Positions 14,831-15,100 of a DNA stretch of 64,000 nt are shown one piece after another (positions within the stretch are counted from its first letter, which is position 1; the number at the start of each line of letters is the position of its first letter). The notes below the pieces were generated by a model, which was given only the letters and a program-made list of their open reading frames with translations, ran no database searches and was not told the DNA's origin. The DNA is taken from assembly GCA_963701775.1 (NCBI GenBank), contig CAVPBH010000017.1:128729-192728 (forward strand), read 5' to 3'. The translations under genes and the position numbers were made by a program. This DNA is from an uncultured Chloroflexia bacterium. Its GTDB lineage: Bacteria > Chloroflexota > Anaerolineae > JAAYZQ01.

Positions 14831-14880
14831 TTGACAGGCAAGAACATGTGTTCTATACTACGCATAGAACACATGTTCTC
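14831..14880 (+). promoter_or_regulatory. LexA(Cheo-type)-box controlled promoter: TTGACA-N5-GAACATGTGTTC-TATACT plus second box GAACACATGTTC
   Basis: -35 TTGACA at 14831-14836. Box 1 GAACATGTGTTC at 14843-14854, between -35 and -10. -10 TATACT at 14855-14860. Box 2 GAACACATGTTC at 14867-14878. Both fit the Gram-positive consensus GAAC-N4-GTTC. Confidence 0.6.
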
Positions 14881-14887
14881 TATTGCG

Positions 14888-15100
14888 ATGGAGGTGACCA
14901 TGAGAGAAGGGACGGTTCCGCTCCGCGATCTGCTCCGCAGCCGGCTGTTCTGGCTGTGTGCCGTGGCCATGGCACAAGGTATCCTCTTCGGGCTCTTTCC
15001 CCGGCTGCCGGCGAGCTTGGAGCTCGTGTTCGGGGTCGTGCTCGTTGTGCTGCTGGCCGGTGTGGTCAACCAGAAAGGGCAGCCGCAGTCTGGATCGTAG
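14888..15100 (+). CDS. small 2-TM membrane protein, putative SOS-induced (70 aa)
   Basis: MEVTMREGTVPLRDLLRSRLFWLCAVAMAQGILFGLFPRLPASLELVFGVVLVVLLAGVV. The ATG lies about 10 nt after LexA box 2. The annotated ORF 14804 start would lie upstream of the promoter. Confidence 0.5.
   Translation: MEVTMREGTVPLRDLLRSRLFWLCAVAMAQGILFGLFPRLPASLELVFGVVLVVLLAGVVNQKGQPQSGS

Follow-up and report, generated by a model that had tools for sequence, protein, structure and literature searches.

A small membrane protein gene behind a double LexA-type operator in an Anaerolineae genome and its relatives in phages

Does a short reading frame that stands directly behind a near-consensus promoter with two palindromic boxes belong to the SOS response triggered by damaged DNA, and what would its product do there? 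The question is raised by positions 14831-15100 of a 64-kb stretch of DNA from an uncultured Anaerolineae bacterium, hereafter the window, by which we mean the whole stretch analysed. The locus has a simple anatomy, with a gene for a membrane protein of 66 residues, here called the small gene, placed behind the boxes. The open reading frame (ORF) is coding, the promoter is conserved in chromosomal relatives, its design is shared with recA and ruvA, and the protein is homologous to a family carried by phages. The role of the protein is a matter of graded likelihoods, set out below.

Starting from its upstream end, the promoter region (14831-14902) reads TTGACA-ggcaa-GAACATGTGTTC-TATACT-acgcata-GAACACATGTTC-tctattgcgat-GGAGGTGAcc-ATG. 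On the plus strand, it comprises a -35 hexamer TTGACA (14831-14836), a first operator O1 (GAACATGTGTTC, 14842-14853), a -10 hexamer TATACT (14854-14859), a second operator O2 (GAACACATGTTC, 14867-14878) and a Shine-Dalgarno (SD) sequence GGAGGTGA (14890-14897). O1 occupies the whole spacer region up to the -10 hexamer, which it adjoins, and O2 covers the predicted start site, from about +1 to +13 relative to it, 25 bp from O1 centre to centre. The original prediction had placed two perfect Cheo-type LexA boxes over a TTGACA/TATACT promoter, and both boxes are indeed exact matches to GAAC-N4-GTTC, one in the spacer and one at the start site, with extended forms AGAAC..GTTCT at 14841-14854 (O1) and at 14866-14879 (O2). 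The hexamers match the consensus at 11 of 12 positions with a spacer of 17 nt, and this is the sole promoter-like site in the 2 kb from 14000 to 16000, where 0.2 would be expected. The predicted leader is about 34 nt long and carries a strong ribosome-binding site. At the other end of the gene, 3′ of the stop codon, a weak terminator-like hairpin (15109-15122, plus strand) is a consensus match only.

The same layout precedes recA in the window. The recA gene (28195-29274, plus strand; Pfam RecA 5.7e-133, RecA_C 1.3e-20) follows a promoter at 28134-28162, plus strand, that reads TTGACA-aagta-GAACGTTTGTGC-TATACT, with the hexamers at 28134-28139 and 28157-28162 and the box at 28145-28156. The near identity of the two promoters that had been claimed from the letters holds for the order of -35 hexamer, N5, box and -10 hexamer, but recA has a single box, and its right arm is an imperfect GTGC as opposed to the GTTC in both boxes of the small gene.

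How specific is the motif within the window? Exact GAACN4GTTC occurs three times in the 64 kb against 0.58 expected, a count attained by 2 shuffles in 100, and two of these sites fall in the promoter of the small gene. The third, GAACCCCTGTTC at 60292-60303, lies inside long ORFs on both strands, without any promoter around it, and has probably arisen by chance. When one mismatch is allowed, the motif is not enriched (15 sites, 17.5 expected), so that the exact or flank-extended motif is the only informative form. Extended by its flanks to WGAACN4GTKCW, the motif marks exactly three sites in the window, O1, O2 and the recA promoter, in agreement with the operator aGAACnnnnGTKC that the window had been proposed to define.

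Beyond the window, we scanned a metagenome collection for the full design, TTGACA-N5-GAAC-N4-GTKC-TAT(A/G)CT, a pattern of about 40 bits for which rough arithmetic predicts a handful of chance matches only. At least 120 sites were found, and the first downstream ORF was surveyed at 80 of these loci. RecA is the commonest Pfam family among these ORFs (5 of the 80); RuvA (L159), DUF5131 (L156) and the small membrane protein itself occur once each, and radical-SAM (L107, L140) and glyoxalase-family proteins (L119, L138) twice each. The N-termini of both radical-SAM proteins are of what we take to be the DNA modification or repair type. Four of the five metagenomic RecA proteins are 75-85% identical to the RecA of the window over most of their length, and the fifth (L160) is a 54-aa fragment with 65% identity. 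The GTGC right arm recurs in all six recA promoters (28145-28156 in the window, L104, L113, L123, L155 and L160), which suggests a weakened operator that has been conserved and would fit early or leaky expression of recA. The genes behind the SOS-type promoter in metagenomes outline a candidate Anaerolineales SOS regulon.

Since the design precedes recA, ruvA and repair-type radical-SAM genes, the box behaves as an SOS operator. Fernandez de Henestrosa and colleagues are said to have described GAAC-N4-GTTC in a member of the Chloroflexi, Dehalococcoides ethenogenes (J Bacteriol, 2002). The motif is the LexA motif of Bacillus subtilis, Mycobacterium tuberculosis and Gram-positive bacteria generally (PMC3323433). 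On these grounds the boxes are very probably bound by LexA, and a tblastn search for lexA gave no match in the window, L018 or L001. The assignment to LexA comes wholly from the motif and from the recA and ruvA association, which has to be counted against it.

The promoter has been kept in chromosomal relatives of the small gene. The protein has 16 homologues with 71-89% identity, all metagenomic, and the 185,579 species-representative genomes searched gave a single match, an Anaerolineae metagenome-assembled genome (MAG), at 77% identity. Across nine distinct close loci, the -35 hexamer is invariant, the -10 hexamer is TATACT in eight and TATGCT in L018, and the SD sequence is kept in eight and reads GGGGGTGG in L007. 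Nearly every GAAC/GTTC arm is retained as well, with three single-base changes in all (in L011 and L017), and the N4 cores and spacers drift; O2 is kept in eight of the nine, one of its arms being altered to GCTC in L017. The design extends to distant homologues with other gene neighbours. P0019 (L202; 41% identity) has TTGACA-N5-GAACATATGTTC-TATACT with a second box 19 nt downstream, a different O2 spacing, and P0029 (L203; 39% identity) has TTGACA-N5-GAACAAATGTTC-TATACT with one box, O2 being absent. Together with L112, from the metagenome scan, the box-in-promoter design is kept in all 12 distinct chromosomal homologue loci examined. Gene neighbours vary around the kept promoter (M20 peptidase and cyclase, M20 peptidase and SDR, or nitroreductase and glucosamine-6-P isomerase). 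The proposal that the small gene is a member of the SOS regulon thus finds computational support in the retention of the boxes in 12 of 12 loci and in the design shared with recA and ruvA.

The two operators have a further relationship, in that the sequence of O2 equals the reverse complement of O1. The match continues into the flanks, so that the stretch 14841-14879 is a perfect inverted repeat of 16 nt per arm (14841-14856 and 14864-14879) around a 7-nt gap. As RNA, the repeat would fold into a hairpin of -26.9 kcal/mol (z -4.8). Over the nine close loci the N4 cores of O1 and O2 co-vary as ATGT/ACAT, ATGC/GCAT, AGGT/ACCT and AAAT/ATTT, with three pairs and five cells altered on both sides, a score reached by none of 500 shuffles. 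Such a pair of complementary substitutions is precisely what distinguishes L015 from L016, the proteins of which are identical. A symmetric LexA dimer gives no reason for covariation between the N4 cores. Template-switch mutagenesis can correct quasi-palindromes by using hairpins as templates, and the simplest account of the pattern would be hairpin-templated correction of this kind, amounting to a concerted evolution of repressor sites; alternatively, there may be selection for a hairpin in DNA or in read-through RNA. The hairpin was also considered as a terminator of the upstream M20 peptidase gene, and this was rejected as it has no U-tract and is absent at recA and L203.

The inverted repeat lends itself to a different reading of the whole promoter, in which another regulator than LexA occupies the palindromes, or these act mainly as a DNA or RNA hairpin, and the gene lies outside the DNA-damage response. 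The compensatory changes across loci, the stability of the RNA hairpin and the missing lexA match all speak for it. As opposed to this, the box stands at the same promoter position before six recA genes, ruvA and repair genes, and both recA and L203 have a single box and hence no hairpin. Moreover, O1 is upstream of the predicted transcription start, which puts the hairpin outside the mRNA of the small gene, and a search of 14600-15300 against Rfam gave no match. We consider this reading very unlikely, and continue with LexA as the probable repressor.

Is the ORF a real gene? It runs from 14900 to 15100 on the plus strand, giving 66 aa and a stop codon (15098-15100), and its ATG at 14900 has GGAGG 5 nt upstream. 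An in-frame ATG at 14888 would give 70 aa, the length assigned in the original prediction; it overlaps the ribosome-binding site and has no SD sequence of its own, so that 66 aa is probably correct, although the start is ambiguous by four codons, since either ATG may be GTG in relatives. A dual start at 14888 and 14900 of the holin/antiholin kind was considered and set aside, the intervening bases being fully explained as the SD sequence GGAGGTGA. The ratio of non-synonymous to synonymous polymorphism (pN/pS) is 0.32 in this frame as opposed to 0.47-2.3 in the other five. Variable alignment columns number 33, 15 and 48 at the first, second and third codon positions, the third being the most variable, and the G+C content at third positions (GC3), 0.79, is a host-like composition. 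Together with the homologues, these patterns identify the ORF as a real gene. The gene is flanked by an M20 peptidase gene that ends at 14764 (plus strand) and by a convergent cyclase-family gene (15169-15921), and it is therefore read as a monocistronic unit outside any prophage.

The convergent neighbour bears on one more alternative, in which the ORF is untranslated and the promoter drives a non-coding transcript or an antisense transcript into the cyclase gene. The terminator-like site, which is the only one after the ORF, is weak, and this and the convergent neighbour count in favour. The purifying selection in frame, the conserved SD sequence and start, and the homology to 969 proteins all argue for translation, and the downstream gene differs among relatives. 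We give this alternative next to no weight.

At an E cut-off of 0.01, the protein encoded by the small gene matches nothing in Pfam, LysM included. A modest AlphaFold 2 (AF2) model built with the family alignment (predicted local distance difference test, pLDDT, 69) places one helix at residues 15-32 and another at 38-59, with F-P-R-L-P linking the two, and hydropathy shows both helices to be strongly hydrophobic, with a net charge of +2 at the N-terminus and a tail of 7-10 residues. Model and hydropathy thus agree with the earlier description of a membrane protein with two transmembrane (TM) helices. By the positive-inside rule, the hairpin would have both termini in the cytoplasm and about five residues outside. 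The most conserved residues, R9, S14-L16, W18-C20, Q26, G27, F33-P34 and P37-S39, cluster in a juxtamembrane motif, in TM1 and in the loop. A Foldseek search with the model found nothing in BFVD with an E value of 0.001 or below, a hairpin of two helices being uninformative in such a comparison.

Where does the protein come from? Searched against 1.8 billion proteins, a profile built from the close homologues alone retrieves 22 cluster representatives with E values of 1e-5 to 1e-12, and the common pattern is L-x-x-S-R-K-F-W-L-A...Q..LF...P.FP..W..I......I..I..ED. The features of this SRKFWLA family are present, namely the juxtamembrane motif L-x-x-S-R-x-F-W-L, a TM1 with Q and LF, a P-x-x-P turn and a TM2. 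A word-indexed profile search raises the family to at least 969 members, none of which has a Pfam domain or a meaningful name. The contexts of distant members are phage-like: P0057 has a major capsid or portal module on one side and a GH25 lysozyme on the other, P0121 lies directly upstream of an Amidase_2 endolysin, and P0107 next to terminase and capsid genes, and in IMG/VR 56 viral contigs carry a member. Alignment of the window subfamily (A1) with 46 viral members (A6) in hhalign gives a probability of 98.0% and an E value of 1.6e-13.

The phage members differ from the chromosomal ones in their control. No GAAC-N4-GTTC box is found within 250 nt upstream in 59 phage or viral family loci, so that the box-in-promoter design divides 12 of 12 from 0 of 59 (Fisher 8e-14). 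The chromosomal subfamily is thus an old offshoot of the phage family that gained SOS control, with copies that reach down to 39% identity and have host composition. Its loss of two features of the phage relatives, an acidic ED motif and a charged tail, counts against the membrane-damaging role proposed below.

Some phage members have further peculiarities. Tandem duplications of the two-helix module, with four predicted helices, occur in P0018, P0021, P0023, P0030 and P0038-P0056 (128-154 aa), and L040 is a tandem-duplicated member on a viral contig. On the phage contig of P0057, intein (Hint/Intein_splicing) and LAGLIDADG domains are combined in a protein of 628 aa (L019/L020/L021 423-2309), adjoined by a GIY-YIG/NUMOD3 homing-endonuclease-like gene.

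Whether the phage family is a family of holins matters for the role of the chromosomal protein, as the phage ancestry moves the functional prior towards a holin-like or toxin-like membrane effector. All sub-threshold matches to functionally annotated phage families are to holins. They include the holin-type PHROG families phrog_297, phrog_5847, phrog_565, phrog_14607 and phrog_9987, at 1e-3 to 1e-2 except for the outlier L080 at 1.2e-8, and, in Pfam, Phage_holin_9 (13 of the 46 viral members), Phage_holin_1 and Phage_holin_10. The annotated holin of Psychrobacillus phage Perkons, directly upstream of an endolysin, carries the SRKFW motif and matches the hidden Markov models of the family with E values of 3e-7 to 6e-6, a test on a single sequence. 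By tblastn against cultured phages, the core members P0034 and L045 had no match, and L080 alone found relatives, the Perkons holin included.

A number of observations pull in the other direction. The matches to holin libraries lie below the curated cut-offs (13-19.5 bits for Phage_holin_9, where 27 are needed), and they are biased by base rate, because annotated small membrane proteins of phages are mostly called holins. The protein of the window itself has no match to the curated holin families of Pfam and PHROG, and the structure search returned nothing either. NCBIfam labels 21 of the 46 viral members, weakly (E 0.005 or worse), as the rcc01685 family of gene transfer agents (GTAs); we did not adopt this label, as the match is weak and the protein, whose function is unassigned, is not needed for GTA activity. 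About 11 of 50 phage loci have an endolysin within 3 kb, and in three loci the two genes are adjacent, counts that are a lower bound given that lysins may go undetected; this proximity is close to chance for a random gene of a 40-kb phage, and synteny with endolysins was accordingly set aside as proof of holin function. No lysin is found near the gene of the window among the Pfam matches of the flanking genes. Taken together, the sequence comparisons leave the chance that the phage family consists of holin-like, membrane-lesion proteins at roughly even.

Class II holins and pinholins of phages, such as S68 of phage 21, have two TM helices. The small protein shares with them a length of about 60-70 aa, two TM helices, a predicted N-in/C-in topology and phage-borne relatives. 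It differs in that its gene is chromosomal and has no endolysin partner, its C-terminal tail is weakly charged, its control is by LexA boxes rather than by late phage transcription, and its phage relatives are only sometimes next to lysins.

A mechanism can be proposed in which a LexA-repressed protein of holin or TisB type compromises the membrane after heavy damage and so leads to arrest or death; we put its chance slightly below even. In undamaged cells, LexA dimers would sit on O1, between the -35 and -10 hexamers, and on O2, at the transcription start, and the two perfect operators would shut the near-consensus promoter more tightly than the one imperfect operator of recA. Substantial DNA damage would then free the promoter through RecA-stimulated cleavage of LexA, and the short leader with its strong ribosome-binding site would yield the 66-residue protein. 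Once in the cytoplasmic membrane, as a hairpin of helices whose two ends would face the cytoplasm, the protein might oligomerise and lower membrane integrity or potential, as a holin or TisB does, and growth arrest, or death, of heavily damaged cells would follow. In evolutionary terms, a descendant of the phage family would have become a fixed chromosomal gene of host composition in an Anaerolineae lineage and acquired an SOS promoter.

Colicin operons combine two overlapping LexA boxes with a lysis gene, and in pyocins the holin and lysin are RecA-dependent. The small gene resembles these release modules in its double LexA operators and, as proposed, in the tight and delayed expression of an envelope-compromising product; it differs in that its boxes are 25 bp apart, as opposed to overlapping, and in that neither a cargo toxin nor a tailocin or lysin is part of its operon. 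If graded SOS induction and the double boxes of colicin operons are a guide, we would expect tighter repression and later induction than for recA, and tight, late control would be the usual treatment of a harmful product.

TisB and DinQ, type I toxins of E. coli, are LexA-repressed small hydrophobic proteins of the inner membrane, which, once induced, depolarise or damage the membrane and halt growth (PMC8309996). The proposed logic is alike, with a tight operator over a harmful membrane peptide, but TisB and DinQ have 29 and 27 aa and a single helix, as opposed to 66 aa and two helices here, and they have no sequence relationship to the small protein, which has phage relatives. Both are also paired with RNA antitoxins, IstR-1 and AgrB, whereas for the small gene no minus-strand promoter-like site was found in 14000-16000 and no Rfam match in 14600-15300, searches that a novel small RNA might escape.

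A more elaborate version of the proposal treats the locus as a phage holin-like gene that was captured long ago and put under a double LexA operator, forming a stand-alone, damage-gated switch for self-permeabilisation or dormancy. In these filamentous bacteria it could kill off or silence the heavily damaged cells of a filament, and hairpin-templated correction would keep the operators identical, which would be an unusual instance of concerted evolution. We regard this version as unlikely.

The main rival to a membrane-damaging effector is a divisome-binding checkpoint protein. The small protein would here be an SOS cell-division inhibitor that binds a late component of the divisome, of the FtsW, FtsI or FtsQLB type, and delays septation while repair proceeds, with the membrane left undamaged. 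Outside the gamma-proteobacteria, the SOS checkpoint is usually exerted by small membrane proteins under LexA control, and YneA, ChiZ, DivS and SosA of Gram-positive bacteria and SidA of Caulobacter are small membrane proteins under LexA boxes in bacteria that use GAAC-N4-GTTC, as the small protein would be (PMC6851548). The focus of conservation on the juxtamembrane motif, TM1 and the short loop would also suit a specific contact between proteins. Phage ancestry is compatible with such a role, as phages encode division inhibitors too, SPO1 gp56 being a small membrane protein of this kind. Proteins of the YneA, ChiZ, DivS and SosA class, however, have one TM helix, an extracellular C-terminal part, usually a LysM domain, and a gene divergent from lexA (PMC6851548). 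The small protein, with two TM helices and about five residues in its external loop, lacks a LysM domain, and its gene is flanked by the M20 peptidase and cyclase genes, with no lexA in the 64 kb. Its near lack of residues outside the membrane leaves little for periplasmic contacts with the divisome, and a commoner membrane protein of Anaerolineales behind the same SOS-type promoter (about 230 aa, described below) could fill the role. The earlier judgement that the protein has no LysM domain and resembles neither the YneA/ChiZ/DivS nor the TisB/DinQ class closely therefore stands, the defining features of both classes being absent, and a division inhibitor is, on balance, also unlikely.

A protective role is a further alternative. 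The small protein may be an SOS-induced protective membrane protein, a domesticated phage superinfection-exclusion or anti-holin-like protein that is induced alongside prophages and blocks the entry of phage DNA or delays the triggering of holins. The varied positions of the family in phages, in the head module, by terminase and by lysins, argue against a single role in a lysis cassette, and phrog_14607 carries the label holin/anti-holin. Tight repression by a double operator is more typical of harmful products, and we hold a protective role to be rather improbable, with the membrane-compromising effector as the preferred reading.

Several other observations arose from the scans. A frequent product behind the same promoter, in the form TTGACA-N5-GAACN4GTTC-TATACT, is a membrane protein of about 225-245 aa, found in 15 of the 80 metagenome loci, three times the count of recA (L085, L087, L090, L095, L098, L105, L106, L114, L120, L126, L132, L137, L143, L145 and L146; for example L085:319-1008). 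Its N-terminus reads ...KRGxLFxLxIxxALxAFEIFNYSTTEFALTDLLG..., and it has at least 7,502 homologues, all annotated as 'hypothetical', with no Pfam domain; those with a named source come from Chloroflexi or Anaerolineales MAGs. The 64-kb window does not encode it. It may be a major SOS effector of Anaerolineales.

In four human-gut contigs (L116, L139, L149 and L152) the same promoter design precedes a protein of 146 aa, and the four members with a match to Sigma70_r4 are probably these. The protein has weak similarity (about 33% over 68 aa, E ~1e-6) to an ORF of the window without a box (275-877, minus strand), where the stretch at 293-493 (minus strand) was noted for similarity to the gut protein. 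Elsewhere in the window, the ORF at 11350-12555 (minus strand) has RHS repeats (Pfam RHS_repeat 4.4e-14) and may represent a polymorphic toxin locus in fragmentary form.

In all systems studied to date, small membrane proteins under SOS control act as effectors of checkpoints or persistence, as with the SulA-independent division inhibitors, TisB and DinQ, and we know of no SOS-controlled small membrane effector in the Chloroflexota. The present locus offers a clean, conserved candidate for one with a simple genetic architecture, and the signature TTGACA-N5-GAAC-N4-GTKC-TATACT serves as an operational SOS promoter signature for Anaerolineales. We see the locus as a good lead for experiments more than as something conceptually surprising. 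A family without annotation that is frequent in uncultivated phages is now linked to an SOS-controlled gene, and the function of the chromosomal copy would also annotate a phage family of at least 969 members.

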